Virus record (IMG/VR): IMGVR_UViG_3300037424_000495
Location: 1-64,000 of that record
DNA from: a virus
Lineage: Duplodnaviria; Heunggongvirae; Uroviricota; Caudoviricetes
DNA: 64,000 bases
Reading direction: 5' to 3' (one strand)
Part shown: piece by piece, positions 39,242-64,000 of the stretch
Position numbering within the stretch: position 1 is the first letter of the stretch
How the letters are laid out: the number at the start of each line of letters is the position of its first letter
Notes under the pieces: generated by a model
Seen by the model: only the letters and a program-made list of their open reading frames with translations
The model's database searches: none
Told to the model about the DNA's origin: nothing
Translations under genes and position numbers: made by a program

Positions 39242-40396
39242 ATGGCAAAATCCCTAAAACGTGAATTCCTACAACTGGCGGATCATTATAAGACGGACAA
39301 ATCAAACGTCGCCGGTTGGTTCATATCTGAAAAATTGGACGGCACACGTTGTTTTTGGGACGGTGGAGTGAGTCGGGGAGTCCCCACTGAAGAGGTGCCG
39401 TGGGCATCGATCATTGACCCAAAAACTGGTAAGCGTAAGGCTAAGATCAAACCAGTGGCCACCGGCTTGTGGAGTCGCTATGGGAATCCGATTATCGCAC
39501 CTGACGAATTCCTAAATCTATTGCCGTGTTGTCCTTTGGATGGTGAGTTGTGGGCCGGACGTGGAAATTTTCAGCTTTGTCGGAGTATCTGTGGCGGCGA
39601 TACGCCTGATCCACGCTTCATGGAGCATATTGTTTACGCTGTCTACAGCAGCCCGCCATTGGCATCGATTTTTGCTACTGGCGAAATTGCCAATGCCAAT
39701 ATGGTTTGTTCAATTGATTACATCGCATGTGAGCATTGGCTCAATCAACGACTCAGTGCAAAATCCGAGAAAAATGCCGCCGTACCTGTCCCACGTCATT
39801 GTTTGCGTGACGATTATCGCTATCTGCCGCCAGATAGACCCTTCTCGGAAGAAGTGCGTTTCTTAGCTGAAAATCTTGACAACGGTCCTGAATCAAAGTG
39901 TTACCTACATCAGCAAACCAAACTGATTGACATCCCCGAGGAAGCTGCTGGTCAAGTGGAAGCCTTTTTACAAAAGGTTTTGGATCGCGGCGGCGAAGGG
40001 GTTGTAATTCGCAATCCAGACGCATTGTGGACTCCGAAGCGACATAAGGGCATCCTCAAATATAAGCCATATCAGGACTGTGAAGTCTCTGTCACTGGGT
40101 TTACTTCCGGCCGTGAGACTGATAAAGGCAGCAAGCATCTTGGTCGCATCGGCGCATTGATAACCGACTACAAAGGAAAGCGCCTCGAAATATCTGGACT
40201 AACAGATATCGAACGTGAATTTGCATCTGGGGAAATGGGCGTCTTTGCATCTGCGAATCCCGGCGTGGACATGCCAACTTGGTTTCAAGGTCGGCGTTTT
40301 AAAACCGGCGATACCATAAGCATTCTCTTCAGAGAATTAAGCGACGATGGTATCCCGAAAGAGGCAAGGTATTTTCGTCAGCGAGACGTGGAGTAA
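39242..40396 (+). CDS. ATP-dependent DNA ligase
   Basis: Motif I SEKLDGTRCFW (KxDG), motif IV GEGVVIRNP, motif V LKYKPY. Confidence 0.75.
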   Translation: MAKSLKREFLQLADHYKTDKSNVAGWFISEKLDGTRCFWDGGVSRGVPTEEVPWASIIDPKTGKRKAKIKPVATGLWSRYGNPIIAPDEFLNLLPCCPLDGELWAGRGNFQLCRSICGGDTPDPRFMEHIVYAVYSSPPLASIFATGEIANANMVCSIDYIACEHWLNQRLSAKSEKNAAVPVPRHCLRDDYRYLPPDRPFSEEVRFLAENLDNGPESKCYLHQQTKLIDIPEEAAGQVEAFLQKVLDRGGEGVVIRNPDALWTPKRHKGILKYKPYQDCEVSVTGFTSGRETDKGSKHLGRIGALITDYKGKRLEISGLTDIEREFASGEMGVFASANPGVDMPTWFQGRRFKTGDTISILFRELSDDGIPKEARYFRQRDVE

Positions 40397-40399
40397 ACC

Positions 40400-40588
40400 A
40401 TGAGATTCGGTAAACCAACCCGCCGCCCTAGTGACGGTGAAGAACGTATCTTCCGGCATTTTCTTTGGCTACCAGTAACTATTGGCGGTGAAACACGTTG
40501 GCTAGAGACGGCTGATATCAATTATCGTTATGAACGCAGTGGCTACGTTGGCGATGAGTGGGTGCCAATACGTTTTATCAATCACTAG
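40400..40588 (+). CDS. small hypothetical protein
   Basis: ORF in track. Confidence 0.3.
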   Translation: MRFGKPTRRPSDGEERIFRHFLWLPVTIGGETRWLETADINYRYERSGYVGDEWVPIRFINH

Positions 40589-40596
40589 GAATTAAC

Positions 40597-40872
40597 ATGC
40601 GAATACTGATATCAAAGATTCAACGCTGGTTGCGTTTATTCCGCCGTCGAAGTAATATGACATTGACCATCCCGCTAGCGGATAGATGGCTGGCTCAAGC
40701 CATTCTCAATTGTCTTTATTGTTGGCACAGGCAGCATGGCCCCGGGGTGTGGATTGTAACCAAAGAAGACATTGATCAATTAGAAGAAATGACTCGTTGG
40801 CTCTACGCTCAACATGAGGACACTCGTCGATTTGCGTTCTGGCAGCGTTATCGAATTAAATACCGGCAATAA
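40597..40872 (+). CDS. hypothetical protein
   Basis: Internal ATG of track ORF 40558-40872. Confidence 0.4.
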   Translation: MRILISKIQRWLRLFRRRSNMTLTIPLADRWLAQAILNCLYCWHRQHGPGVWIVTKEDIDQLEEMTRWLYAQHEDTRRFAFWQRYRIKYRQ

Positions 40873-40896
40873 CTAAACCACAAAGGAAACTAACTT

Positions 40897-41490
40897 ATGC
40901 GAACCTTGCTGTGTACCGCGATTATTGTTTTACTTTTTACAAGTATATCATGCGAATCACCCAAGAACGATCTTGTATGTCCGCCAGGACCACATTATCA
41001 GGCACCCGAGACGCCTCGATTGATGCTCTTGGATGAATTCCTCAAAATAAAAACTCGCTGCTTTCGCACAGGAGGTAGCGACAGTGTATTAAATACAATC
41101 GCCGAAGAAGGGGCAACTCTGCAAGCCATTGCACAACAATGTAGTCATGCAGGTTGGGATGCCAGACTGACGAAACTTGCTACAGCATACCCAGGCTGGG
41201 TGTTTCGCGAAGTTGTTTGTGACGCTGTAAGCGGGTTGTGTCATTTCGACTCCGCTAAAGATATTGCCACGAGTCTGCAGACTAACACTTCTAATTGGTC
41301 CGTTTTGAATGCCTCATGTGACGCCTGGGGACTGACGATGGTGAAAGGCAAGAATGATACCTACTACGCCTGCATCATCCTGGGTTACAAAAACAACAAT
41401 TTCAATGACAGGTACACGCCTGCAGAGGTGCCTAATCTTATCGACCAATATCGGCAAAACTATTGGCCGCATGGGGTGCCTAAACACTAA
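40897..41490 (+). CDS. putative lipoprotein
   Basis: Signal peptide MRTLLCTAIIVLLFTSISC with lipobox-like ISC. Confidence 0.5.
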   Translation: MRTLLCTAIIVLLFTSISCESPKNDLVCPPGPHYQAPETPRLMLLDEFLKIKTRCFRTGGSDSVLNTIAEEGATLQAIAQQCSHAGWDARLTKLATAYPGWVFREVVCDAVSGLCHFDSAKDIATSLQTNTSNWSVLNASCDAWGLTMVKGKNDTYYACIILGYKNNNFNDRYTPAEVPNLIDQYRQNYWPHGVPKH

Positions 41491-41492
41491 TA

Positions 41493-42404
41493 ATGTCCTC
41501 AACTATTTCAAGTCTGACTAATCGCGGACTAATAAGTCCACCGACATGGCTGCCTGATAACATCGTCTTCGAGGGTGTGCAAGGAAGCAATGCCTACGGT
41601 GTGGCAGTTGACACGTCCGACTTTGATATTATTGGCTTCTGTATTCCGCCGAAAGATTTGATCTTCCCGCATCTTGCAGGCGAGATTGAAGGTTTTGGAC
41701 GCCAAAAGAAACGCTTTGTCTGCTACCAGAAGCACCATGTTCGCGACCAGCAAGCACAGAATGGAGCCGGGCGTGAATATGATTTCAACGTCTACAACAT
41801 TGTCCACTATTTTAATCTGGCAATGCAGAATAATCCAAATATGCTAGCCAGCTTGTTTCTACCGGCCGATTGCATTCTTTTCACAACTCGAATCGGTGAG
41901 ATGATTCGCGACAAGAGGCATATCTTCTTACATAAAGGTGCATGGCACCGTTTCAAAGGCTATGCCTACAGTCAATTGTCTGAAATGGGTAAGAAACCCG
42001 ACTCTGGTAGCAAGCGGGAAGCCCTGGTGCAAAAGTTCGGTTTCGACGTAAAATTTGCGTATCATCTTGTCCGCTTAATGTTCGAGATAGAACAAATCTT
42101 AACTACCGGCGACCTCGATCTGCGAAGAAACGCAGAAGAACTAAAAGCGATTCGTCGTGGTGAGATACCCGAATCAGAGATTCGGAACTTTTTCGCCGAT
42201 AAAGAAAAGTTTCTCGAAGGTTTGTACGAGAAATCAAATCTGCCTTGGGGACCGCGTGAGGCAGAGATCAAGCAATTGCTCTTGGACTGTTTGGAAGAAC
42301 ATTATGGCAGCCTTGAAGATTGTGTCGTGACCGAAGCTGATCCGTTAAGAGCATTGCGTGAGATTGCGTCCATTGTCGATGACAACCGGCATCTGTTGAG
42401 GTAA
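41493..42404 (+). CDS. Pol-beta superfamily nucleotidyltransferase (RlaP/YcgL-like)
   Basis: GSNAYGVAVDTSDFDIIGF (GS..G......SDxD) nucleotidyltransferase motif. Confidence 0.55.
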   Translation: MSSTISSLTNRGLISPPTWLPDNIVFEGVQGSNAYGVAVDTSDFDIIGFCIPPKDLIFPHLAGEIEGFGRQKKRFVCYQKHHVRDQQAQNGAGREYDFNVYNIVHYFNLAMQNNPNMLASLFLPADCILFTTRIGEMIRDKRHIFLHKGAWHRFKGYAYSQLSEMGKKPDSGSKREALVQKFGFDVKFAYHLVRLMFEIEQILTTGDLDLRRNAEELKAIRRGEIPESEIRNFFADKEKFLEGLYEKSNLPWGPREAEIKQLLLDCLEEHYGSLEDCVVTEADPLRALREIASIVDDNRHLLR

Positions 42405-42407
42405 GGA

Positions 42408-42824
42408 ATGGCGCAGAGATTCAGGATTGGTTTGGGTCGAAACGACGATGAGACTTTCACGTTCGACGTAGTTCTCTACAAGAATCATCGTCAACTTCAA
42501 CGGTCTTATCGTCATTGTGCCAAGCAGGATCGCGGTGCCGAACCGAAGCGGACACGTATCGGTGCGTTCACCACTGAGTATTACTGGTCAAAGCATTCGC
42601 AAGAAATTGGGTCCATTCGATTTTCGACAGAACATCTGACTGAGAAGTTTATTGTCCACGAATCTACACACGCAGCATTGCATCTTGCCAGGTACATGGA
42701 CAAATATGCCGGTGGATTCAGGAGTAAACGTGCCCGCGAGGAGTTGGTGGCGATAGCCACGGATGTGATCTACATCGAGATTTGTCAGCACGTAAGAAAA
42801 CGAAAACTGAAGATAGGGCGGTGA
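42408..42824 (+). CDS. hypothetical protein
   Basis: ORF in track, immediately downstream of the NTase. Confidence 0.45.
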   Translation: MAQRFRIGLGRNDDETFTFDVVLYKNHRQLQRSYRHCAKQDRGAEPKRTRIGAFTTEYYWSKHSQEIGSIRFSTEHLTEKFIVHESTHAALHLARYMDKYAGGFRSKRAREELVAIATDVIYIEICQHVRKRKLKIGR

Positions 42825-42825
42825 A

Positions 42826-42996
42826 ATGATTATGACCGACTACACCAATGAAACATCAGAGCAATTGTTAACTGAATTAGTGCGCCTACGGCAAGAGATT
42901 CGATTGTGTCAAAGGCCAGTTGACCAGAAATGCAAGGACGCAGAGGTAATTTATGGCGTTTTGATGCAACGTGGTATCGATCCTGATTCACACTGA
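42826..42996 (+). CDS. small hypothetical protein (56 aa)
   Basis: MIMTDYTNETSEQLLTELVRLRQEIRLCQRP...; below the ORF-track cutoff; preferred over the antisense track ORF 42830-43204. Confidence 0.35.
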   Translation: MIMTDYTNETSEQLLTELVRLRQEIRLCQRPVDQKCKDAEVIYGVLMQRGIDPDSH

Positions 42997-42997
42997 A

Positions 42998-43531
42998 ATG
43001 ACTCGATCTACCCTCATCTATGAAGCGGAATTGTTTGCGCGTGAAGCACATGCGAGGCAGGTTCGTAAATACACGGGGATGCCATATATCGTCCACCCGA
43101 TGAACGTGGCCAAAATCGTGTCCGAAGTCACCGACGATCCAGTCACAATTGCCGTGGCATGGTTGCACGATACCGTGGAAGACACGAGTGTCACATTCGC
43201 CCAAATCGGAACACTGTTTGGCCGGGAAGTCGCTGACTTAGTGGCAGACGTGACGAACATCACGAAGAAGACAGACGGCAACCGCGCGTTTCGTAAGGCA
43301 TTGGAGCGGACCCATCTGGCGATGGCAGCCCCGAAAGCGAAAACTGTCAAGTTGGCGGACATGTTGGACAACATTCCCAGCACAGTGCAGTACGATCCAG
43401 GCTTCGCAGTTACTTACGTGGACGAGAAACGCCGGCTGCTGGGCTACCTACGCGCAGGCAATCGCACGCTTTGGGATCGTGCAGTGCGACTCATCGAACA
43501 GAGCACTGAACTTTTGAGGAGGAAGACATGA
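42998..43531 (+). CDS. HD-domain (p)ppGpp hydrolase, small alarmone hydrolase SpoT/Mesh1-like
   Basis: HARQVRKYTGMPYIVHP...AVAWLHDTVEDT...FGREVADLVADVT matches the RelA/SpoT HD hydrolase signature. Confidence 0.7.
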   Translation: MTRSTLIYEAELFAREAHARQVRKYTGMPYIVHPMNVAKIVSEVTDDPVTIAVAWLHDTVEDTSVTFAQIGTLFGREVADLVADVTNITKKTDGNRAFRKALERTHLAMAAPKAKTVKLADMLDNIPSTVQYDPGFAVTYVDEKRRLLGYLRAGNRTLWDRAVRLIEQSTELLRRKT

Positions 43532-43708
43532 ATTTAACCCGCGAGAAACTACTGGAATTGATTCGACGTTGGAATTATGCGAGTGAGGTAGATCACCGTA
43601 TCAAAGAATTGAATCAATACGGTAGTGCTGCCAGTGGCTCCCAACAGGTAATCGACGCCGCACTCGACGATGTGCTTGAAATTCTTAACGAAAGGCCAGT
43701 GCAATGAC
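43529..43708 (+). CDS. small hypothetical protein (59 aa)
   Basis: GAGGAGG RBS; ATGA overlap with the upstream stop. Confidence 0.4.
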
Positions 43709-43717
43709 TATTTCAAG

Positions 43718-44092
43718 TCACTCCCGGCGCTTCGCGAGTATAGGGACACCTTCGGAGAGAAGCCGGTCTAATTCCGTCCGGGGTATTTTCCAGCGACCAC
43801 TTGAATCCTTGACACCTTTGATATCGCCCTGAATGCACAGTTGGCGGATAGTCCAAGCAGACCGACTAAGATAAACGCCGGCTGCGGCTGCATTCAAGTA
43901 GACAGCCCTCGGTTTAGGCACATCACTTACATGCGAGAGGATTGTGTCATTTAACTGTTCAACATGTTTAATATGTTGCATCTGTTCAAGAAGAACATTG
44001 TTAAAAGTGTCATAAACAGTGTCACGCACAGTGTCACGAATAATTTGTCTTAATAAATCGTCAATAGTTTGTGTAGTCATATTAGCCTCCAT
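43718..44092 (-). CDS. excisionase/AlpA-like HTH DNA-binding protein
   Basis: RAVYLNAAAAGVYLSRSAWTIRQLCIQGDIKGVKDSSGRWKIPRTELDRLL helix-turn-helix (Xis family); the lone minus-strand gene in a + strand block. Confidence 0.6.
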   Translation of the reverse strand: MEANMTTQTIDDLLRQIIRDTVRDTVYDTFNNVLLEQMQHIKHVEQLNDTILSHVSDVPKPRAVYLNAAAAGVYLSRSAWTIRQLCIQGDIKGVKDSSGRWKIPRTELDRLLSEGVPILAKRRE

Positions 44093-44163
44093 GTCATTTA
44101 TTGTAATCGCTTCCTAAATTCTGTAAAGCTAAATTCTGAGAGCGTTTAAACGCGCTGCATAAC

Positions 44164-44892
44164 ATGACAAAAAGAAATCCAAAACAAGACGGCAGTAATT
44201 TATTCGATTGTATACCGCAGATCGGCCCCTGTCCAATCGGCTGCAACGCTTGCTTCTACAACCGGCCCGGTGCATTCTATCTCCCAATCGATCAACCCAG
44301 CATCCCAACGTCTGAGGAAGTAGGTGATGGAATTGTGCGAATGAATTGCGGCAACGATAGCAATAATCAACGCGATCTTGTAATTGAGACTGCTAAGCAA
44401 TACAAGCACGCTTTCTTCAACACCAGTATTCCACGTTTTGACTTTCCTGGCCCTGTCGTTTGGACCGCAAATCCTTGTGAGGAGCAATATGTGCGCATCC
44501 CGCCTGCATTGCAATGCGAGATTCCCAGCAACTTGATGTTTATTCGTTTGCGAGTATCAAGCACAAATCTTTTTCGCATTAAGTTGGCTGCCGAATGGTT
44601 CAACGCAAAACAAGTGCCAGTTGTCTTAACATTCATGGCTTATTATGAGACGGAGCCAATGGTGCCAACTGACGTACTCACCGCTGTCGGTGGACCGTGC
44701 TACGAATGGAAAGTACGTCACATCAATTCATATTTCTGTCCTACCCCTGCGTTCATTCGGTATGTCATGAGTCTCTTTAAAGGCAACCGCCTTGTATCAT
44801 ACTGTGGCAGCCTCGAAGGATCATACTGCCGACTGTGTCTAAACTGCGAAACATATTACCACCAGGCAGTTAAACGAATGAAGGGCGAGTAA
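44164..44892 (+). CDS. hypothetical protein
   Basis: ORF in track. Confidence 0.45.
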   Translation: MTKRNPKQDGSNLFDCIPQIGPCPIGCNACFYNRPGAFYLPIDQPSIPTSEEVGDGIVRMNCGNDSNNQRDLVIETAKQYKHAFFNTSIPRFDFPGPVVWTANPCEEQYVRIPPALQCEIPSNLMFIRLRVSSTNLFRIKLAAEWFNAKQVPVVLTFMAYYETEPMVPTDVLTAVGGPCYEWKVRHINSYFCPTPAFIRYVMSLFKGNRLVSYCGSLEGSYCRLCLNCETYYHQAVKRMKGE

Positions 44893-45413
44893 TGCGGCGA
44901 ATCAATATCTTCGGCGGTCCTGGTGTCGGTAAATCAACACTGGCCGCTCAAATCTTTGGACATTTGCGTCAACAAGGTCAATCAGCCGAATTGGTTCAAG
45001 AATGGTTTAAAACTTGGGCCTATGCCGGCCATCAAGCTAAATCATTTGATTACGTCTATGCTTTTGCCAACCAATTACATGCCGAGGACCAATTGCTGCA
45101 AGCAGGCGTCAAGATAATTATTTCTGACAGTCCGATGTACTTGCAGTGCATTTATGCGTATCGCCATAAATTGCCGTTTGCAGGTGAACTTTTGCAAATC
45201 GCAAAAAGGTTTGAAGCAACCTATCCCTCTATCAATTTTGTTATCGACCGGCCTCAATTTCAAGTCTACGAACAAGCAGGTCGCTATGAAACTCTTGACC
45301 AAGCGATAGAAATGGACCGTTTCATTGTGCAATTATTGGATGACTTTTGGGCCATTCCGTTTAAACGTGTTCGACCAGGTGACTTAAATGCAATACTCAA
45401 GGAGCTTGTATAA
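44892..45413 (+). CDS. P-loop nucleoside/nucleotide kinase-like protein
   Basis: Walker A INIFGGPGVGKSTLA close to the N-terminus; ~170 aa size typical of dNMP kinases. Confidence 0.55.
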   Translation: MRRINIFGGPGVGKSTLAAQIFGHLRQQGQSAELVQEWFKTWAYAGHQAKSFDYVYAFANQLHAEDQLLQAGVKIIISDSPMYLQCIYAYRHKLPFAGELLQIAKRFEATYPSINFVIDRPQFQVYEQAGRYETLDQAIEMDRFIVQLLDDFWAIPFKRVRPGDLNAILKELV

Positions 45414-45415
45414 AC

Positions 45416-46120
45416 ATGTATAAATATCTTTTGATTCTCTGTTTGGTATTTATTGGCTGCCAAGAGCCAGCGAAACCTAAGTCGCCACAGCCCGATCCAC
45501 TGCGAACCTTGCAGACAGATATACGACACATTGCGCACGTCCGCCCGAGCGGTAGTGCCGCAAATCAGCAAGTGGCCAATTATCTTGCTCGCGAGTTGCA
45601 AAAATCCGGCTTCCAAGTTACACGTCAACCTTTTAATAAAGGTACGAACATTGTCGGTATTCGCCGTGGATCTTCAGCCCGGACTATCATTATTGGCAGC
45701 CATTATGATAGCGTGAACTGTCCAGGAGCCGACGATAACGCTTCCGGTTGTGCTGTAAATCTACTTGTTGCTCGGCAGCTTATAAAGCAGAAACTCAATC
45801 ACACATTGACTATTATCTTCTTTGACGCTGAAGAAATTGGACTTGTTGGATCAAATTACTACGCCAAGTCGATGACAGCAAAATGCGACTTGATGATTAA
45901 CCTCGACATGGTAGGCAATCTTCATGTCTCAAGTACACCGGACGCCATATTCAACGACCTCTACCGTAAATATCCGTGGGCACGCAACATTTCTTTTAGA
46001 ACCGGCGACGCTCCAAGCGACCACACACACCGTTCAATGCGAAAGGCATTCCCGTCGTCTGGGTCTTTACTGGCACACATCCTCGTTACCATGAATCAAC
46101 AGATGTGCCTTCAAGTTTAA
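45416..46120 (+). CDS. M28-family zinc aminopeptidase lipoprotein
   Basis: Lipobox LVFIGC; M28 motifs IIGSHYDS, GADDNASG, FFDAEEIGLVGS, NLDMVG. Confidence 0.7.
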   Translation: MYKYLLILCLVFIGCQEPAKPKSPQPDPLRTLQTDIRHIAHVRPSGSAANQQVANYLARELQKSGFQVTRQPFNKGTNIVGIRRGSSARTIIIGSHYDSVNCPGADDNASGCAVNLLVARQLIKQKLNHTLTIIFFDAEEIGLVGSNYYAKSMTAKCDLMINLDMVGNLHVSSTPDAIFNDLYRKYPWARNISFRTGDAPSDHTHRSMRKAFPSSGSLLAHILVTMNQQMCLQV

Positions 46121-46237
46121 ACTACAGCGGAATGATTCTAATTTCGCAGTATGTTTGCGACATTGCACGCAGCTTCGATAAACAAATAAATACTACCTTC
46201 CTCAACTCTCTTCAGCCTTTAACCAACGAGGTATTCA

Positions 46238-46384
46238 ATGGGCGGAATAGTAACACTGATAATTAGCCTGCTTGCAGGAGCCATTGTCATCACCATGACT
46301 TGCGAGGCTCCAGTAGCCATTGTAACTGTCTGTGGTGTAGTGATAGTGGCTGCAATCATCGCCAAAGCCAAAGGTACGATATGA
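46238..46384 (+). CDS. small hydrophobic membrane peptide (48 aa)
   Basis: MGGIVTLIISLLAGAIVITMTCEAPVAIVTVCGVVIVAAIIAKAKGTI; below the track cutoff; ATGA overlap with the next gene. Confidence 0.35.
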   Translation: MGGIVTLIISLLAGAIVITMTCEAPVAIVTVCGVVIVAAIIAKAKGTI

Positions 46385-47418
46385 GCGACACGATTTGGAC
46401 GCCGTTACAAGCCGATATAGTCACCCCGAAATGGTGCGACGGCACAGCTTTTTATTATCCCACTCAATCTAAACCTTTATCGCTAACAGCGTACAATCAA
46501 ATAGTTCAAATTAGAAATGCAATTGTTCCCAATGCACTCAGGGACGAATGGCTACTGGATAAAGCGCTTACATGTACCGAAATTAAAACATTCAAGGAAG
46601 CCATTAACGAGCATCAATTTAATTATCCTTGGACAATCACGCCCGGCAGCGAGAAGTATTTTCACGCCGACGACATCAATGAACTACGTCGTTTGGCGAC
46701 TTACCCGAATACTTTAAAACAAATTGTTACCAATGAGTCCGCAATCCTTGATGAGTGGTGCATCGAGTATGTAACTAGCGGTATGCAGATATTGGCAGAA
46801 TGTGCTGGCAGTAGTTCAGAAGGTTGGCAATCATTTGTCGGCACCAAAGTAGCAGATGAAAACACTTCACATCGTTTTTGGATTTGGACTCAATACCCTG
46901 AGTATCATGATTGGTTAGGGGCCAGTGTTGGAATCATTGGACTCGACGGACGCATCAAAGCACCGATTGGTGGATCGGCCACCGAAGCAGGCGATTGGCA
47001 GTCTGGCCCGCAGTCTGGACAACATGATAACGCCAACTGGTGGCTAATTCAATTGGTCCAAGATATCCATAGTCCACTCAATGAAGTAGCCACAGTAACG
47101 AAGCCTCTAAAAGGTTTGATTTTCGGACAAGAAGAACACTATACCACCACCACTGAAATATACTATGAAAATTGTGTCCCGGCTACCGGCGACACGCAGG
47201 GCACCGTAGACAAAGTAACTAGATACACATGGTCAAGTAACTGTAACTATTGGGTATCGACGTATGTGCAACATCTAACTCATTGGCACACAAGTTGTGA
47301 CTGGTACAACAGTCACGTAACTTACACTTCAACAGGCACGTCACCAGCAGAATTTGATCTAATTGAAATCGGTGAAAGTTTCTTTCATACGTGGGAATTC
47401 TATATGGATCAACTTTAA
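46381..47418 (+). CDS. hypothetical protein
   Basis: ATG MSDTIW...; the track ORF begins further upstream at a non-ATG codon. Confidence 0.5.
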   Translation: MSDTIWTPLQADIVTPKWCDGTAFYYPTQSKPLSLTAYNQIVQIRNAIVPNALRDEWLLDKALTCTEIKTFKEAINEHQFNYPWTITPGSEKYFHADDINELRRLATYPNTLKQIVTNESAILDEWCIEYVTSGMQILAECAGSSSEGWQSFVGTKVADENTSHRFWIWTQYPEYHDWLGASVGIIGLDGRIKAPIGGSATEAGDWQSGPQSGQHDNANWWLIQLVQDIHSPLNEVATVTKPLKGLIFGQEEHYTTTTEIYYENCVPATGDTQGTVDKVTRYTWSSNCNYWVSTYVQHLTHWHTSCDWYNSHVTYTSTGTSPAEFDLIEIGESFFHTWEFYMDQL

Positions 47419-47923
47419 TATGACTACGCCAACTGTCTTAGATGTAATACACCCGTTTCAAGATATCTCGACGCAACTAGCACATTTAAAGATCGAAAGT
47501 GTTGATTTAGGTGATTGGCCTTCCTGTCTCTGGCGACTTTTTGAAATTAAATCAAATCAAACTGTCAATCCTGTCTGCGGGCACAAAAATAAGTATGGCA
47601 CACTAAATAACTCTCTTTGTCAAAACTGCAGGTCTCGACGGCCATTGATTGGCCCCATTGTAGAGGGGCCAATTATAAAAGGGCCGGGTGACCTCCTACA
47701 TGACGCTATTACTACCGTCTTCGGTGAAGAAGCCAGAAAAAGTTGCCACTGTAACAAACACATTGCACAGATGAATCGATGGGGTGCCTCTGGTTGCCGG
47801 GAACACATTGAAGAAATCGTACAGTGGCTTTATGACGAAGCACTCCGACGTGGCTGGAAAGCAGTGCAACTACCTTTATCCAGAATCTTTATAAAACAAT
47901 TTATCCTTGACGCAATCGCATAA
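47418..47923 (+). CDS. hypothetical Cys-containing protein
   Basis: Internal ATG MTTPTVLDV... of track ORF 47363-47923. Confidence 0.4.
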
Positions 47924-48020
47924 GTTGTACAGACAACTCTAATTTTAACTGACTCTGTTGATCTAACTTTAGAGTCAGAAATCTTGTCAACAACCGTCAA
48001 CTGTCTCGAACCCTGCACCC

Positions 48021-48668
48021 ATGTCAGAAGTCACAATCACCGTTGAACGTATTGAGGCCATTAAACCGCATCCAAATGCGGACAAAATGGAAATTGCCGA
48101 AGTAGCCGGCACTCAAACCCTTGTTGGCAAAGACCAATTTAAGGTTGGTGATTTAGCAGTCTATTTTCCACCTGACATTTTAATCCCCGGAGAAGTCTCC
48201 GAGGCTCTAGGTGTCGCAAAATATCTCAAGACCGCTCTCTATGGCGGCTTGCGTGTGCCTTGTCGCGTGGCGGCTTGCCGACTACGTGGCGTGCCGAGCT
48301 ATGGCTTTGCTCAACCGTTGACGGTTTTGGGAACTGTTGATCTACGCCAGATTCATGTCGGCAAAGATGTAACTGAAACCTTTCGTGGCCTCAAGTACGA
48401 GCCAGTGGTTAAGGTTCAGCGTGGGCACGGTGGCGGCACAGGTGAAGTCTGGGGTGGCTTGGCTCCCGAACCAATTAACTTCCACCGTTACACTGACATT
48501 CAGCATTACCGCAAATACAGGCATTTGCTTGCGACAGAGACGCCAGTGCGCATAACCGAAAAAGTACACGGTTGCCTAATGTTCCAGGAACGTATCACAA
48601 TGGTAGACGGGTCCAAGAAAAAGATTGGACACACGTCCGCATTGGTGATTTTGTTCTTGGGGTTGTGA
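48021..48668 (+). CDS. RNA ligase N-terminal segment: tRNA-binding (Myf/EMAP-like) domain, motif I lysine, start of intein
   Basis: IKPHPNADKMEIAEV...VGDLAVYFPPD tRNA-binding fold; EKVHG (ligase motif I) followed by intein block A CLMFQERITMVDGSKKKI; ORF stops shortly after an A5 run. Confidence 0.6.
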   Translation: MSEVTITVERIEAIKPHPNADKMEIAEVAGTQTLVGKDQFKVGDLAVYFPPDILIPGEVSEALGVAKYLKTALYGGLRVPCRVAACRLRGVPSYGFAQPLTVLGTVDLRQIHVGKDVTETFRGLKYEPVVKVQRGHGGGTGEVWGGLAPEPINFHRYTDIQHYRKYRHLLATETPVRITEKVHGCLMFQERITMVDGSKKKIGHTSALVILFLGL

Positions 48669-49639
48669 ATGGACAAGTCGTTCCGAGCCAAGTATTAAAC
48701 GTCTTTAATAACGGTCGCAGCGACCGCTGGCTCAAGGTGACATTCACACGGCGACTTGCGGGTCGGGGCGGCAACAATGTTGGCACAATACATTGCACAC
48801 CGAATCACTGCTTCTGGACGCCGGATAAAAATGACTACACACCAGCCAGTGAGTTGCGTGTTGGAAATCTCGTCAATTTACTTCGCTCTGACACCGATCT
48901 AACCCCAGTCCAGCACGCTATCTTGCCACCGACCGCAACACATTACAAGCCGCTTCTAGTCTCGCAGCGTGTTGTCGCTATTGAAGAATACATTGCTCCA
49001 CGAGCAAACCGCTATGACATTGAAACCGAAACACATAATTACTTCGCTAATGGTGTTTTGACTCACAATTCTAATTCGCGCGTGGGGCTTCTGAAAGTTG
49101 ATGGCGAATGGCAATTTGTTGCCGGCTCCCATAAGACTGCCCGCAAGCAGATTGATCCTGAAGGGCGAGAATCCGTGTACTGGTCTCCACTTCAGGATTT
49201 TAATGTGTTGCGGATGCTTACCGATATGTGCAATGAAGCCAACGATATTATTCTATTCGGTGAGTTATACGGTCCTGGAGTTCAAGACTTAGACTATGGG
49301 ATTCCTGCCGGTGACATTGGTTGGCGGATGTTTGATATCACTGCGAATGGAGAATACTTGGACTGGGGTCTCATTGCATTCTTATCCATGCACTACGATG
49401 TGCCCACTGTTCCGCTGCTTTATTCAGGTCCATTCAAACGGGAGTTGATCGACGAATTGACTTGTGGCCCGACGACTGTCGTCTCGGGGACCGAGATCAA
49501 ATCCAAATTCAAAGGTCGTGAAGGGATCGTCATTACACCATTGGTAGAAGAGACATGCAGCATTGGCCGTCTAATTCTAAAGTCTGTCAGCGCGGATTAT
49601 TTAGACAGGAAGGGAGCAGAAGACAATGGTGACATCTAA
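48572..49639 (+). CDS. remainder of the mini-intein plus the RNA ligase nucleotidyltransferase domain (Rnl2-like), in the -1 frame relative to the upstream segment
   Basis: Intein block B TPNHCFWT and C-terminal YDIETETHNYFANGVLTHN|S; extein motifs ILFGELYG (III), GWRMFDI (IV), KGREGIVIT (V), LILKSVSADY (VI). Confidence 0.6.
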   Translation: MPNVPGTYHNGRRVQEKDWTHVRIGDFVLGVVNGQVVPSQVLNVFNNGRSDRWLKVTFTRRLAGRGGNNVGTIHCTPNHCFWTPDKNDYTPASELRVGNLVNLLRSDTDLTPVQHAILPPTATHYKPLLVSQRVVAIEEYIAPRANRYDIETETHNYFANGVLTHNSNSRVGLLKVDGEWQFVAGSHKTARKQIDPEGRESVYWSPLQDFNVLRMLTDMCNEANDIILFGELYGPGVQDLDYGIPAGDIGWRMFDITANGEYLDWGLIAFLSMHYDVPTVPLLYSGPFKRELIDELTCGPTTVVSGTEIKSKFKGREGIVITPLVEETCSIGRLILKSVSADYLDRKGAEDNGDI

Positions 49640-50510
49640 CACGTGCTTAACATCTGACGATCAATTGTTCACAAAAAATCGAAGCCGTGAAGCTCCATCT
49701 TTTGCAAATATCAATCTTCTCGGCCGATGTAATGTAGACTGTTATTTCTGCCTGGGAAAAGATATCCCAGACTTGCTTGCGCCTCATAACCAATTGACAA
49801 CACACTTTTTGCAGTGGAATAATTGGCTGGATTTCCTGATAACGTGCCAGCAACACAACATTCGTAAGCTGTATGTCACCGGCCAGAACACCGACAGTTT
49901 ACAGTATCGGTATCTTGCAGAATTGATTAACTATTTGCACAGGTATGGCTTCCAAGTCGGACTGCGAACAAATGGCTACTTGGCATTGAAGCAAATGGCG
50001 GCCATAAACCAATGCGACTTATCGGTTGGCTACTCAATTCATACGCTCAAGCCAGATATAAACTTTCAGTTGATGAAACACCGCCGGCTACCAGAATGGC
50101 AAACTATTTTGGAAAAGACAAAGCGGCCACGAGTACAAATTGTTGTTACAAGACACAATGCTTCCGAAGTATTTGACATTATTAAATGGCTGTCACAATT
50201 TCCACATCTACGTTATGTACAAGTGCGGCGTGTCAGCAGCGACACTCGGCGTGAGGAATTAGCGCCCGACGCATTGGCTTATGATACGTTACTCTCGCAG
50301 GTACAGGATTTGTATCCACGAGAAAGTGTTCTATGGGGCACAGCAAGCATTTATCGAATACATGGGCTGCCAGTATGCTTCTGGCAAACAACAGCCACAA
50401 GTATCAACAGTTTCAACTACTTTACAGACGGCACTATCAGCCGTGAGTATTTTATTGTTGAAGGCTATAAGAAAGCCTTGCAAGGAGCCAAGTGTGACAC
50501 CAAAGTCTAA
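49626..50510 (+). CDS. radical SAM enzyme
   Basis: CNVDCYFC (CxxxCxxC) cluster-binding motif near the N-terminus. Confidence 0.65.
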   Translation: MVTSNTCLTSDDQLFTKNRSREAPSFANINLLGRCNVDCYFCLGKDIPDLLAPHNQLTTHFLQWNNWLDFLITCQQHNIRKLYVTGQNTDSLQYRYLAELINYLHRYGFQVGLRTNGYLALKQMAAINQCDLSVGYSIHTLKPDINFQLMKHRRLPEWQTILEKTKRPRVQIVVTRHNASEVFDIIKWLSQFPHLRYVQVRRVSSDTRREELAPDALAYDTLLSQVQDLYPRESVLWGTASIYRIHGLPVCFWQTTATSINSFNYFTDGTISREYFIVEGYKKALQGAKCDTKV

Positions 50511-50985
50511 AGAAATCATACTATTATCCTTACGTGGCTTACTTATAGCCCAATGTCTTTTCCTTTTACTACCATACAGTATCGGCTGGTGGTATGACCA
50601 TACTGGACCACACGCTTCCGAACAACTTTGGCTTAATAAAGCTATTACGCATTGCAAACAGATGCGAGCAGCGTGCGTCGATCCCGATCTCTGCGATATC
50701 CTTGACTACACCATTCAACGCTATCACCGCATCGGCGGCTTTGATGTAGCTGTTATGCCTTGCTTCACTCCCGATGATAGCGACGGTGGTTACGTGATTG
50801 GTATAAATATGCCAACATGCCCGGGAATGTGTATTGACCCAAAAGTTTTAAATTACCCAATTGAAATAGGCGCGATGGTTGTAGTTCATGAGGCCATGCA
50901 CGATTACCGGCCGTGGTGGGGCCACAATCACATCAATGAACGTGAACGCAAACTCTATGACCTTTCCTACAGTGTAAGGAGATAA
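50493..50985 (+). CDS. secreted/membrane HExxH zinc-metallopeptidase-like protein
   Basis: GTG after AGGAG; signal-like LLSLRGLLIAQCLFLLLPYS; HEAMHDY motif. Confidence 0.4.
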
Positions 50986-50987
50986 CG

Positions 50988-51665
50988 ATGGATTATACTC
51001 GCGAACAAATTTTAAGCGTCTTGGACATTGCGGTTCTACGACCGGCTGCACCCTTATTAGAAATTCAAGAGGCTGCTATTGAAGTAGAGCGGCAGAACAT
51101 GGCTTCCGTATGCGTCACCTCAGCTAACGTGGCGTTTGCCCGGCGGTTCACAAAACGAGTTTGTGCTGTCGTTGGTTTTCCACACGGCAACACGTTACCG
51201 CAAATCAAAGCCGTTGAAGCACAGAATGCGATCAAAGATGGGGCGGTAGAAATTGATTTTGTTCTTAATTACGGACATTTTCTGTCCGGCGATATCCGAA
51301 CTGTCGAAGAAGAATTGCAATTATTGTCACAGACACGTGCGGAAGTATACGGATGCAAATTAAAAGCGATTCTTGAAACATGCTACTACCATCCTTCACA
51401 AATCGCAACAATCAGTGAGCTTTGCATCAGCTATGGCATGGACTTTATAAAAACATCGACAGGCTTCGGTCTGGAGACGGCTATTTATGCTAGTCTACCT
51501 GACGCACTTCAAGTAATCCTTAACACAATCAAAAAGTGTAATAGCCGCACGAAGGTTAAAGCCAGCGGCGGTATTCGATCTTACGCAGATGCGTGTAAAT
51601 ATCTGGATATGGGCTGTACACGTTTAGGCGTCAGCTATCAAAACTATGAGAATTTGCTGCCATGA
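50988..51665 (+). CDS. deoxyribose-phosphate aldolase (DeoC/DERA family)
   Basis: VVGFPHG, Schiff-base lysine context IKTSTGF, KASGGIR. Confidence 0.75.
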   Translation: MDYTREQILSVLDIAVLRPAAPLLEIQEAAIEVERQNMASVCVTSANVAFARRFTKRVCAVVGFPHGNTLPQIKAVEAQNAIKDGAVEIDFVLNYGHFLSGDIRTVEEELQLLSQTRAEVYGCKLKAILETCYYHPSQIATISELCISYGMDFIKTSTGFGLETAIYASLPDALQVILNTIKKCNSRTKVKASGGIRSYADACKYLDMGCTRLGVSYQNYENLLP

Positions 51666-51889
51666 AAATACCTGCTGGTTACATCGTGGAGAAACGCCTA
51701 CGAAACATCTTAGGCGAACCGCATGAAGAAACGATTCTCACGCACCCTTGTGGTTCCTACATCGCCTGGTGTGTTCAAATCCAAGCTGATGGCACACCGT
51801 CCCACAAGAGACTGAAATCTATGAAAATAGAAGTCTCAAAAATAATAGACCAACACATTGCGTACTTTAATTTAAACCGCGCGGCATAA
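51662..51889 (+). CDS. small hypothetical protein
   Basis: ORF in track. Confidence 0.35.
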   Translation: MKIPAGYIVEKRLRNILGEPHEETILTHPCGSYIAWCVQIQADGTPSHKRLKSMKIEVSKIIDQHIAYFNLNRAA

Positions 51890-51891
51890 CA

Positions 51892-52476
51892 ATGACTAAA
51901 CATAAAATGAATCGTTTAGCTTTCAACCGATGCTACTTATGCGGTCCTATGGACCGTGTTCCAGACGGTGGAATCGGTTGGCGTCAAAAGCTTATCCACG
52001 ATCTGAAAGACTTAAAAATCAATTGGCTCAATCCATGCTGTAAACCTATTGACATAGGTGTCGAAGATTTGGAGAGCCGCGCGGCACGGAATTACGCCAA
52101 GCAAATGGGCGATTTTGGCTATGTGCAAACCCAAATGCAACAAATTTGTCCGGTTGACTTGCGGATGGTCGATATAAGCGATCTCTTAATCGTCAATCTC
52201 GATCTAGCTGTCCATGCGACAGGGTCGTATGAGGAACTTTTCCGCGCTAATAACCTTGGTAAACCGATTTTAGTGCGAATCGAGCAAGGAATTGAACATA
52301 CGCCGGATTGGCTCTTGGGTCGCCTCCCTCTCGAAATGCTTTTTTCTACTTGGGACCAAGTTAAAACCTATGTGCGGCATATTGCACACGATCCAGTTAT
52401 TGACCGACTGAATCGATGGTTCTTTTTCAATTACACCGGTGAATATCCACACAAAAAGAAAAACAGCAAGCATTAG
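51892..52476 (+). CDS. nucleoside 2-deoxyribosyltransferase-like (NDT/DNPH1-type) protein
   Basis: CYLCGPM near the N-terminus and DLLIVNLDLAVHATGSYEELFRANNLGKPIL resemble the NDT family YLAGP / D..GT.fE.G signatures. Confidence 0.55.
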   Translation: MTKHKMNRLAFNRCYLCGPMDRVPDGGIGWRQKLIHDLKDLKINWLNPCCKPIDIGVEDLESRAARNYAKQMGDFGYVQTQMQQICPVDLRMVDISDLLIVNLDLAVHATGSYEELFRANNLGKPILVRIEQGIEHTPDWLLGRLPLEMLFSTWDQVKTYVRHIAHDPVIDRLNRWFFFNYTGEYPHKKKNSKH

Positions 52477-52485
52477 AGTTCAACT

Positions 52486-52708
52486 AATGAAACCTGATTC
52501 AAGCACACCAAAACGATCATTCTTGAAAGCCTTATCCTGGGAAACTTTCTCGAATCTTATCTGCTTCGTACTTGCCATTGCTATGTTTGGCAACATTGGC
52601 GGATGCGTAGCATTCACTATTCTTGCATTCATTGTGAAACTGATTCTTTATTATTGGCATGAACGTATTTGGCACCAAATCCCTTTCGGAAAGAACATAC
52701 GTGAATAA
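52486..52708 (+). CDS. small membrane protein
   Basis: Two hydrophobic helices FSNLICFVLAIAMFGNIGG / AFTILAFIVKLILYYW. Confidence 0.4.
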
Positions 52709-63329: not shown

Positions 63330-63406
63330 ATATGCGGCGGGCCGAAGAGAATGGGTTATCTGGTTAAGGTTTACCCCACTCTCACTAACTTGCCCGCCCA
63401 TTTATG

Positions 63407-63530
63407 AACACTGTAGCTCAGTTGGTAGAGCGCTAAAACCGCTTGCCACCACTAGCCTGAAAGGGCCGAATGGTTAAGCGTTATCCATTTCTAACGGAGA
63501 GGTCGCAGGTTCAAGTCCTGCCAGTGTTCA
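63407..63530 (+). ncRNA. tRNA-like RNA 1 (Y-RNA-like tRNA mimic candidate) with ~50-nt insertion in place of a normal anticodon arm
   Basis: 7-bp acceptor-like stem AACACTG/CAGTGTT; D-arm TAGCTCAGTTGGTAGAGC; T-arm GCAGGTTCAAGTCCTGC; ~67 nt between D- and T-arms where a tRNA has ~22. Confidence 0.55.
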
Positions 63531-63535
63531 CTATG

Positions 63536-63666
63536 TACGTCGTAGCTCAGTCTGGTAGAGCAAAAGTTAGTATGCCGCTGTCCGCTCTTTTACCCGGCAA
63601 CGGGTCGATAGGCCAGCGTTATCATTGGGAACTTTAGGTCGCAGGTTCAAATCCTGCCGACGTGCC
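63536..63666 (+). ncRNA. tRNA-like RNA 2 (Y-RNA-like tRNA mimic candidate) with ~56-nt structured insertion in the anticodon loop
   Basis: Acceptor-like stem TACGTCG/CGACGTG; D-arm TAGCTCAGTCTGGTAGAGC; anticodon-stem-like AAAGT/ACTTT enclosing a 63-nt loop with a CCCG-GCAA-CGGG hairpin; T-arm GCAGGTTCAAATCCTGC. Confidence 0.55.
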
Positions 63667-63701: not shown

Positions 63702-64000
63702 ATGAATTACGCCCAGCATGTTTCATCCCGCGTTACACCGCAATCAGAGCCGATCCCTGGAAAGCCCCAAGTGGCAAACAACGGTGGCGGCTACAGTTTC
63801 ACTCTTGATTGCTGGGGCCAACTTCAACGCTTCTTAATCCTTGGCTCTGAAGGCGGCACATATTATGTGTCCGAACATAAGCTAACTATCGATAACGCCA
63901 ACTGCGTATTGGCGTGCGGCAATGCTGACTCGACCCGTGCTGTTGAGTTGATTGTATCTGTGAGTCAAGCTGGTCGAGCGCCGAAGAATGACCCTGCCAT
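63702..64000 (+). CDS. rsr: Ro60/TROVE-domain protein (Rsr-like), 3'-truncated by the window end
   Basis: [34 protein letters not shown]...[12 protein letters not shown] closely parallels the Ro60 N-terminus ([22 protein letters not shown]...EGRAAKQEPTLFALA, recalled from memory). Confidence 0.8.
   Translation, partial: [99 protein letters not shown]

Follow-up and report, generated by a model that had tools for sequence, protein, structure and literature searches.

A predicted intein-bearing RNA ligase gene in a metagenomic phage is probably broken by a two-base insertion rather than expressed through programmed frameshifting

Within the 64,000-nucleotide stretch of viral DNA analyzed here (the window), the plus strand, on which all the features described below are located, carries a 215-aa open reading frame in frame 0 (ORF1, 48021-48668), which is overlapped by a −1 frame that stays open from 48497 to a TAA stop at 49637-49639. 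ORF1 begins with the N-extein of a predicted RNA ligase (48021-48572), which comprises an OB domain (PF21189) and the first part of the nucleotidyltransferase domain, as far as motif I (E-K-V-H-G), whose Lys codon is at 48561-48563. The first 20 codons of an intein follow in the same frame (CLMFQERITMVDGSKKKIGH, block A, 48573-48632), starting with the Cys codon TGC at 48573, while the remainder of this mini-intein (residues 21-166, 48635-49069) is read in the −1 frame. As the earlier note had described, the upstream 215-aa ORF reaches motif I and then enters an intein N-terminus, and the intein continues in the −1 frame with block B (TPNH, 48797-48808) and an intein C-terminus that ends in ...YDIETETHNYFANGVLTHN at 49069. 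The last residues of the intein, ...THN, are encoded at 49061-49069, and together with the +1 Ser they occupy 49061-49072. From that Ser, at 49070, the C-extein of the ligase runs in the −1 frame to 49639, and it includes motif III (ILFGELYG, 49250-49273), motif IIIa (WRMFDI, 49322-49339), motif IV (REGIVITP, 49517-49540), and motif V (RLILKSVS, 49568-49591). In frame 0, the 215-aa product ends in a tail of 11 out-of-frame codons, TSALVILFLGL, before the TGA stop at 48666-48668, which overlaps the GTG at 48665-48667 that gene callers chose as the start of a 324-aa downstream ORF. Close to the junction of the two frames lie the lysine codons AAG AAA AAG (48615-48623), which contain an A5 run (48618-48622) and the G_AAA_AAG proposed as a slippery heptamer (48617-48623), where the conserved Lys-Lys pair of intein block A is encoded. 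A palindrome, GGACACACGTCC (48627-48638), with a stem of 4-5 bp and a 4-nt loop, follows them. Both elements are present as had been noted, but the coordinates given for them were one base too high.

Conceptual splicing of the two exteins yielded a protein of 373 aa that matched TIGR02306 from end to end (profile positions 6-341 of 341), with a score of 141.8 bits against a curated equivalog cut-off of 151.15 and the whole profile covered. PF21189 matched residues 6-100 of the spliced protein and PF09414 residues 175-356. An OB domain stands at the N-terminus, next comes a nucleotidyltransferase domain in which motifs I, III, IIIa, IV, and V can be located, and 16 residues remain after motif V; there is no C-terminal domain. 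Its best solved relative is NgrRnl, and many of its homologues bear the JGI label 'RNA ligase (TIGR02306 family)'. Judged by these matches, ORF1 and the −1 ORF together make up the gene of a predicted ATP-dependent RNA ligase of the DraRnl/NgrRnl type (TIGR02306, "Rnl5", DRB0094/NgrRnl). The protein had previously been assigned to the Rnl2 type, an assignment at odds with the lack of a C-terminal domain, the best-matching family, and the best solved relative. Motif VI, also listed at the time, is one that we take to be not applicable to this ligase family, since Rnl5-type ligases are without a C-terminal OB domain. As for the N-terminal tRNA-binding fold reported before, the OB domain is there, in the form of PF21189, but PF01588 (tRNA_bind) gave no match.

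The intein is 166 aa long and sits directly after motif I (EKVHG, then SNS), with all the splicing residues intact; the Cys that immediately follows the N-extein is found in the same place in 29 of 29 homologous inteins. TIGR01443 (intein_Cterm) scored 25.3 bits, against a cut-off of 15.6, PF14890 scored 34.2 bits, slightly below its cut-off of 35.8, and a profile search with the intein matched solved inteins with E-values down to 1e-13. Once the surplus AC described below was corrected, the AlphaFold2 model of the intein showed a Hint fold with a mean pLDDT of 82 and a pTM of 0.78, pLDDT being low at residues 108-123, and Foldseek matched the model to the RecA, DnaB, NrdJ-1, and gp41-1 inteins with a probability of 1.00 and a target-normalized TM-score (TMt) of ~0.7-0.8. 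In three full-length relatives (P0002, P0005, and P0006), ...TPVQHAVLLGK and GWLPPTTKTYK are separated by ~210 aa that contain PF03161, and comparison with these relatives places the deletion scar of a LAGLIDADG homing endonuclease at 48896-48961 of the window (DLTPVQHAIL+PPTATHYKPLLV). These matches and the model identify the insert as a predicted class-1 intein (Hint domain) with its LAGLIDADG endonuclease deleted, for which splicing is predicted. When the intein was used as a tblastn query against the whole window, no second intein was found.

The position at which the frame breaks can be read from the spacing of block A. All 29 homologous inteins, that is, 28 of 28 homologues plus gp147 of Mycobacterium phage Bobby, follow the pattern DG-x4-[I/V/L]-x2-[I/V/L]-x2-G[D/E] without indels. 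In the window, frame 0 gives KKK-IGH and can be followed to 48632, and frame −1 takes over with VRIGD at 48635, so that two bases are in surplus, the AC at 48633-48634 within the palindrome or, equally, any one AC unit of the ACACAC at 48629-48634. At this point, the DNA is GGG TCC AAA AGG AAG ATT GGA CTT GTT CAA GTT GGT GAC in the closest intein homologue and GGG TCC AAG AAA AAG ATT GGA CAC ac GTC CGC ATT GGT GAT in the window. The Lys-Lys-Lys block is 9 nt long in both, while the interval from ATTGGA to GGTGA is 14 nt in the window and 12 nt in the homologue. Frame 0 remains homologous for three codons past the lysines (ATT GGA CAC, I-G-H), and the first of these residues, Ile18 of the intein, is I in 27 of the 29 homologues and V/L in the remaining two. 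Moreover, an HMM built from 28 homologous intein N-termini matched frame 0 through residue 20, and it gave 102.7 bits to the model in which AC is removed versus 91.7 bits to a slip in the A run, which is 11 bits worse. In tblastn searches, the frame-0 match ended at 48629 with P0003 as the query and at 48632 with P0055, and P0003 placed the break between 48629 and 48635. With AC removed, the protein reads ...KKK IGH VRIGDFVLG..., colinear with all the homologues. On this alignment, the break reads as two extra bases inside the intein, a putative change from (AC)2 to (AC)3 within GGACAC[AC]GTCC; an allele without the extra AC would read GGACACGTCC, where the window has GGACACACGTCC. The frame change had been placed exactly at the lysine codons, whereas the 29 homologous inteins and the DNA of the closest homologue put the surplus at 48633-48634. 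Database and contig pattern searches found no intein relative more than 62% identical that shows the ancestral CAC GTC directly. A DNA pattern with exact flanks and a variable middle (A5/A6 or CAC/CACAC alleles) had 0 matches among viral and metagenome contigs, and when metagenome contigs were scanned with a peptide pattern, no closer relative with an intein emerged, the matches being mostly short and fitting intein-less ligase genes.

Programmed −1 frameshifting at G_AAA_AAG, the mechanism put forward in the earlier note, would join ORF1 to the −1 frame and set the ratio of the 215-aa OB-domain product to the intein-ligase precursor. The heptamer does have an A_AAG A-site motif, and in E. coli no tetramer is more prone to slip than this one when decoded by tRNA-Lys (PMC4066793); the heptamer lies four codons upstream of the lesion and within the overlap of both frames, the frame-0 stop comes shortly after it, and the −1 frame downstream is wholly intact. 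The product of such a slip, KKKDWTHVRIGD, still scored the above 91.7 bits against the intein profile, so it might fold. Nevertheless, it would be one residue longer than in all 29 homologues and would have Asp/Trp in place of the block-A Ile18. At the P-site, the tRNA would have to re-pair from AAA to GAA, which leaves the heptamer, good at the A-site (A_AAG), an imperfect X_XXY_YYZ. The relatives encode these lysines as AAA AGG AAG or AAG AAG AAG, so that the heptamer is absent from them, and there is a single frame in 17 of 17 related loci from which both gene halves were recovered, as there is a single ORF for 28 of 28 intein-bearing homologues from the protein database. The hairpin formed by GGACACACGTCC, which had been seen as a possible stimulator, is not significant (−5.4 kcal/mol, z = +0.2, with 114 of 200 shuffles folding equally well or better), the downstream stretch of 77 nt folds like its shuffles (z = −0.06), and a by-eye check revealed no obvious Shine-Dalgarno-like element upstream. 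Motifs that have no stimulator give ~0.1-0.5% frameshifting in E. coli, barely above background (PMC4066793). AAA-AAG accounts for 5 of the 36 Lys-Lys dicodons in this genome, and the long ORFs of the window contain 7 in-frame instances of N_AAA_AAG. Given the missing stimulator, the lack of conservation, the 9-nt Lys block, and the lower score of the slip product, we consider programmed frameshifting very improbable; AAG AAA AAG is the coding sequence of the conserved KKK in intein block A and not a recoding signal. The same lysine codons are central to the idea, raised as an A5-versus-A6 homopolymer error, that 1 nt was deleted from the A run (A6 to A5) and that the intein is naturally one residue longer in this phage. 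One added A does restore a single ORF, and homopolymer indels are common both as mutations and as errors. However, the A run and the codon block have the expected length, and a deletion there would demand a unique 1-residue insertion and the loss of the conserved Ile where 29 homologues are free of indels. It would also turn the frame-0 matches to K-I-G (AAG ATT GGA in the closest homologue) and to IGH (P0055/P0059) into coincidences, and it is the model that the HMM scored 11 bits lower, all of which makes it extremely unlikely. An even smaller likelihood, close to nil, falls to a working two-gene arrangement in which ORF2 re-initiates at the GTG at 48665 and the two halves undergo trans-splicing, as would an atypically split intein whose N-fragment is very short. 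Stop and start overlap as GTGA, an arrangement typical for translationally coupled genes, both gene callers picked that GTG, and phage genes do contain natural split inteins whose N-fragments measure ~25 aa. Yet intein residues 21-32 (VRIGDFVLGVVN), a segment with the invariant G24, V27, and G29 that the model folds with confidence into a beta-strand, are absent from both polypeptides, the N-fragment ends instead in 11 unrelated hydrophobic residues, and no relative has a split layout. A naturally split intein was therefore rejected, as the two products together do not contain a complete Hint domain.

The extra AC might also be an artefact of sequencing or assembly, or a minority variant in the consensus, with the true gene being a plain in-frame intein ligase. 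It is a single lesion in a gene otherwise perfectly conserved, and what we have is assembled consensus. Identical ORFs of 215 aa and 324 aa were called by JGI/IMG on a contig of 129 kb, and they recur in the Logan assembly of SRR12684511, whose contig matches the window base for base over 45021-52639. The Logan contig is not the source of the window, because the window begins 280 nt beyond the end of that contig, but the JGI and Logan assemblies may derive from one sequencing run and thus share a read set. The presence of an identical ORF pair in two different assemblies speaks against an artefact, and short-read consensus errors do not typically take the form of 2 nt inserted into a short (AC)n. 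Other long ORFs of the window are intact (1250, 1004, 908, and 882 aa), which argues for a very low indel error rate. That the window as a whole is an error-prone assembly was rejected on account of its many intact ORFs of 2.6-3.7 kb and the base-identical second assembly. All in all, we regard an artefact as unlikely, though a prospect to be reckoned with. A slimmer chance is that the lesion is genuine and tolerated, through ribosomal bypass at a useful rate, with a little intein-ligase precursor still being made; the intact downstream frame, otherwise taken to indicate a recent lesion, is equally expected if some recoding route still expressed the gene. Such a bypass could come from tRNA-Lys slipping by −1 at the G_AAA_AAG that lies four codons before the lesion, giving KKKDWTHVRIGD, or from a +2 re-pairing of tRNA-His from CAC at 48630-48632 to CAC at 48632-48634, which would restore the exact ancestral IGH-VRIGD. 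If true, it would be a 'saviour' recoding event on top of protein splicing.

The reading that we favor, to which we assign a probability of roughly 0.78, is that an intein-bearing Rnl5-type ligase gene was broken by a recent +2 insertion of AC, an ordinary frameshift lesion, and that no programmed frameshifting is involved. A real inactivating mutation had been one of the options in the earlier note; it is now the preferred one, with another position and of another kind. The anatomy, the place and size of the indel, and the absence of both conservation and stimulators are shown; we infer that the phage DNA truly carries the mutation, as opposed to an error in the reads, and that this leaves the gene inactive. 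According to this scenario, a class-1 intein would have invaded the ligase gene right after the Gly of motif I (EK[IV]HG, then [ST]N), the LAGLIDADG homing endonuclease would then have been lost in this lineage, leaving the mini-intein, and a 2-nt AC duplication at 48633-48634 would have shifted the frame in this genome. As a result of the duplication, standard translation would give a truncated protein of 215 aa and no active ligase; this protein would run from the OB domain to motif I and on through 20 residues of the intein before ending in 11 junk residues. The lesion is probably young, because everything downstream is open, the catalytic residues are all intact, and divergence is no greater than upstream, the window giving a C-minus-N difference in extein identity of +0.009 and pairs of intact homologues one of +0.020 ± 0.058.

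The ligase can be seen as part of a phage RNA repair/quality-control set that includes RlaP, a kinase-like AAA_28 protein, and Ro60 with Y RNAs. The start of the Ro60 gene and Y-RNA/YrlA-like RNAs are located at 63.3-64.0 kb of the window. An intein placed after the adenylylated-lysine motif of Rnl5-type ligases was found in at least 28 protein clusters and in cultured Cluster J mycobacteriophages, and this intein allele is common among related phages. A phrase search of the open literature returned no description of an RNA ligase intein, and an RNA ligase is not listed in the 2016 survey of mycobacteriophage inteins; the accession SRR12684511 likewise drew no paper. Within the family, the full life cycle of an intein is represented: full-length inteins, inteins whose endonuclease was deleted (several times independently), an allele free of the intein, and, in the window, a frameshifted copy. 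The candidate for frameshifting does not hold up, and the case calls for caution, as a conserved Lys-Lys-Lys beside an indel can mimic a slippery site, while the true break can be placed to within a few bases by the spacing of homologues.

Finally, we compared the locus with known systems. NgrRnl of Naegleria gruberi (PDB 5COT) and Deinococcus DraRnl have the same layout, in which the N-terminal OB domain precedes a nucleotidyltransferase domain that is the last of the protein; the intein is absent from both, unlike in the window. The metagenomic phage homologues P0002-P0007 are 55-76% identical to the window, and their neighborhoods are syntenic with it (AAA_28, RlaP, DNA ligase, DeoC, DUF2061). 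They are all single-frame, and whereas every relative with an intein encodes it in frame with both exteins, the window does not. At the same insertion site, P0003 (514 aa) and P0007 (520 aa) carry mini-inteins like that of the window, and P0002, P0005, and P0006 (~720-730 aa) carry full inteins, in contrast to the endonuclease-deleted intein of the window. The deletion boundaries differ among the window, P0003, and P0007, which suggests that the endonuclease was lost independently in each. With the intein-less P0004 (373 aa), the window shares 86% identity in the N-extein (residues 1-184) and 76% in the C-extein. Among cultured phages, the 'RNA ligase' gp147 of Bobby (QBI98777.1, MK524516.1) belongs to the same ligase family, and its intein is inserted at the same point (ITQKLHG, then C...VLVHN, then SSIRVG), with the block-A spacing of the window (DGTQKR-I-SC-I-VP-GD) and the C-terminal YDIETETHNFFAN motif, although amino-acid identity is only ~30%. 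It is, however, one ORF of 800 aa that has kept its LAGLIDADG endonuclease, where the window has a mini-intein and a +2 frameshift. The same gene is present in the other Omegavirus/Cluster J phages Phoebus, KashFlow, Beem, and Dallas, and a blastn search in distant mode with 47000-51000 gave no match among GenBank phages. With the frameshifting sites of the dnaX/IS911 type (A_AAA_AAG preceded by an SD and followed by a hairpin or pseudoknot), the window has in common an AAA_AAG read by tRNA-Lys and a −1 frame that is open downstream. Unlike them, its heptamer begins with G instead of A and has neither stimulator nor conservation, and the frame switch defined by homology is a +2-nt change located 9-14 nt further downstream.

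Frame 0 of the plus strand encodes a 215-aa ORF with an OB domain (48021–48668; PF21189), and the −1 frame, open from 48497 to the stop codon at 49637–49639 on the same strand, encodes an intein splicing domain and an RNA ligase domain (PF09414). Conceptual removal of the intein (Cys at 48573 to Asn at 49069) gave a 373-aa protein that covers the entire TIGR02306 profile (RNA_lig_DRB0094) at 141.8 bits, slightly under the cut-off of 151.15, and that aligns with PF09414 as well, starting at profile position 2; its nearest solved relative is the Naegleria gruberi RNA ligase. From these matches we infer that the host gene encodes a ligase of the Rnl5 type, composed of an N-terminal OB domain and a nucleotidyltransferase domain without motif VI, and not the Rnl2-type enzyme with motif VI proposed in the earlier note. 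That an RNA ligase is interrupted by a mini-intein just past motif I was, however, borne out by the domains, the junction (EKVHG/C...THN/SNSRVG, uninterrupted as EKVHGTNSRVG in the intein-less phage homologue P0004), and the splicing residues, namely Cys1, block B TPNH, a C-terminal His-Asn, and a +1 Ser. A profile built from seven mini-inteins matched solved inteins (best E = 1e-13), and an AlphaFold2 model of the intein (pLDDT 82, pTM 0.78) matched the RecA, DnaB, NrdJ-1, and gp41-1 inteins in Foldseek with a probability of 1.00. The intein is genuine, judged by sequence and predicted fold, and belongs to a common allele.

The frame change had been placed exactly at AAG AAA AAG, but comparison with homologues locates it at a surplus AC (48633–34). 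The block-A spacing, DG-x4-[I/V/L]-x2-[I/V/L]-x2-G[D/E], is free of indels in 28 of 28 homologous inteins and in gp147 of Mycobacterium phage Bobby. In frame 0 the window intein reads DGSKKK-I-G-H, ending at 48632, and the −1 frame takes over at 48635 with V-R-I-G-D; joining IGH to VRIGD produces IGHVRIGD, an exact match to the pattern, with 2 nt left over. The closest intein homologue, from the related phage locus L003, reads GGG TCC AAA AGG AAG ATT GGA / CTT GTT CAA GTT / GGT GAC where the window reads GGG TCC AAG AAA AAG ATT GGA / CAC ac GTC CGC ATT / GGT GAT, so that both have a 9-nt lysine block, and the segment that follows measures 14 nt in the window vs. 12 nt in L003. In a tblastn search with P0003, a mini-intein ligase homologue, the frame-0 match stops at 48629 and the −1 match restarts at 48635. 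Moreover, an HMM of 28 intein N-termini scored 102.7 bits with the AC removed and 91.7 bits with a slip (or a sixth A) at the A run, a model that requires an insertion and the loss of the block-A Ile (I in 27 of 29 homologues, V or L in the other two). Together, these comparisons point to a +2 insertion, most simply a change from (AC)2 to (AC)3 in GGACAC[AC]GTCC. A missing A in the run, the A5 versus A6 indel of the earlier note, was rejected on the HMM scores and the normal length of the lysine block, as was a change of frame at the lysine codons, since frame-0 homology persists to 48632.

Programmed −1 frameshifting at G_AAA_AAG is not supported, because the heptamer is an imperfect X_XXY_YYZ motif, has no significant structure beside it, and is not conserved. 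The hairpin noted just downstream (−5.4 kcal/mol) was equalled or bettered by 114 of 200 shuffles, and the 77 nt downstream hold no stimulatory structure beyond the shuffled level (z = −0.06). In relatives, the codons for these lysines are AAA AGG AAG or AAG AAG AAG, and none of the 17 related loci with both gene halves recovered has a two-frame layout, all being single-frame. Slippery motifs that lack a stimulator hardly exceed background in E. coli, with tetramers at about 0.15% vs. 0.11% and heptamers at 2–10 times a background of 0.055% (PMC4066793). N_AAA_AAG occurs in frame seven times in the window's long ORFs, and AAA-AAG accounts for 5 of 36 Lys-Lys dicodons in this genome. As for the origin of the AC, identical 215-aa and 324-aa ORFs are found in the JGI/IMG record (129 kb contig) and in the Logan assembly of SRR12684511 (75.2 kb), whose contig is base-identical to the window across 45021–52639. 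Coordinate arithmetic puts the window start 280 nt past the end of the Logan contig (window 1–280), so the window derives from a separate, longer assembly, probably that of the 129-kb JGI contig. The two assemblies, on which the reading of the lesion is based, may come from one read set; nevertheless, a sequencing or assembly artefact is improbable, given that the ORF pair recurs in both, that intact ORFs of 2.6–3.7 kb are numerous in the window, and that a 2-nt insertion is unlike a homopolymer error. On these grounds, a genuine mutation carried by the phages sampled is favoured. The inactivating mutation suggested earlier is thus the preferred option, but it lies at 48633–34 and differs in kind, being a +2 insertion. 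The lesion is probably young, as the C-extein has diverged no more than the N-extein (difference of +0.009, vs. +0.020 ± 0.058 in intact homologues) and the catalytic residues are all intact.

Standard decoding would yield no ligase, only a truncated 215-aa protein consisting of the OB domain, the stretch to motif I, 20 intein residues, and TSALVILFLGL. Low-level rescue by recoding is unlikely but could take two routes: an adventitious −1 slip at AAA_AAG, or +2 re-pairing of tRNA-His at CAC_AC, which would regain the exact ancestral sequence. Re-initiation at GTG 48665, overlapping the TGA at 48666–68, followed by trans-splicing of the two products fails because intein residues 21–32, including the invariant G24, V27, and G29, are encoded in neither. 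The window gene is a damaged case, a phage Rnl5-type RNA ligase whose mini-intein has no endonuclease and carries a private +2 frameshift; its value is low for the frameshift claim and modest for the intein family and the RNA-repair context.

The window is a portion of a tailed-phage genome, with a tape-measure protein, a DUF5906 primase/helicase, a family A DNA polymerase, DNA methylases, an ATP-dependent DNA ligase, RlaP ("RNA repair pathway DNA polymerase beta family"), and an AAA_28 protein; a peptidase M28 gene is also found. Near the ligase (39242–46120 and 50988–51665), a set comprising the ATP-dependent DNA ligase, RlaP, the AAA_28 P-loop protein, a DeoC-like aldolase, and DUF2061 is kept in three related phage contigs (L004–L006), which suggests a block for RNA/DNA repair and nucleotide metabolism. 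A radical SAM gene (49626–50510, plus strand; weak PF04055 match) starts 14 nt ahead of the ligase stop codon; in those contigs its place is taken by an HNH endonuclease, a methylase, or small ORFs. Two plus-strand ORF pairs without Pfam matches overlap in different frames, by 59 nt (6194–7255/7197–8288) and 49 nt (30892–31686/31638–32534), and may be start-codon over-extensions or additional frame breaks; another in-frame G_AAA_AAG lies at 31868–31874.

At the window end, a mini Y-RNA-like hairpin (63335–63399, plus strand) carries the Ro/Rsr-binding motif GGGCCGAAG...UGGGUUAUC...CCCA...ACUUGCCC. Its Rfam matches are sub-threshold (Y_RNA, 23.9 bits; nematode sbRNA, 33.9 bits against a gathering score of 38), but it folds at −27.9 kcal/mol (z = −2.9) and has covariation support, with compensatory changes at 7 of 13 pairs (alignment A2); fifteen similar hairpins were found in IMG/VR phage contigs, several adjoining tRNA-like sequences. 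Two tandem tRNA-like elements follow on the same strand (63408–63531 and 63536–63665), with Ro-binding-like inserts (GGGCCGAAUGG...GUUAUC and GGGUCGAUAGG...GUUAUC). The second matches the Rfam tRNA family at full length (46.4 bits), with about 56 extra nt in place of the anticodon loop, and ARAGORN called no tRNA. By sequence, they resemble Y RNAs of the YrlA type, which mimic tRNAs and bear a Ro-binding stem, and not intron-containing tRNAs. The plus-strand ORF at 63702–64000 (MNYAQHVSS...NNGGGYSFTLDCWGQLQRFLILGSEGGTYYVSEHKL...GRAPKNDPA), which runs past the window end, resembles the N-terminal part of a Ro60/Rsr protein, the start of an rsr-type gene; its Pfam TROVE match, cut by that end, is weak (E = 0.0013, 18.5 bits). 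With the hairpin and tRNA-like elements upstream, this ORF makes up an rsr-Y RNA module, and the phage has RNA-repair genes as well; such Ro60-Y RNA/YrlA arrangements are already known in phages and bacteria (PMC4201824).

Finally, protein searches recovered at least 28 intein-bearing ligase homologues and hundreds of intein-less ones, the former falling into proteins of about 700–730 aa with a LAGLIDADG endonuclease and mini-intein forms of 478–520 aa. The deletion scar in the window mini-intein (48896–48961) reads TPVQHAIL/PPTATHYKPLLV, its counterpart in the full-intein homologue P0002 being TPVQHAVLLGK...GWLPPTTKTYKSLLV, and the mini-inteins of P0003 and P0007 lack the endonuclease with other boundaries. 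Because these boundaries vary between lineages, the homing endonuclease was lost independently across this intein family. The exteins of P0007 and the full-intein P0005 are nearly identical, so the loss in P0007 is recent. We found no account of this Rnl5-ligase allele in phrase searches of the open literature or in the 2016 mycobacteriophage intein survey, and GenBank phage records carrying it are labelled merely "RNA ligase". The same allele is present in cultured Cluster J mycobacteriophages: Bobby gp147, an 800-aa "RNA ligase", reads ITQKLHG/CFPAK...VLVHN/SSIRVG, with the intein at the same insertion point as in the window.
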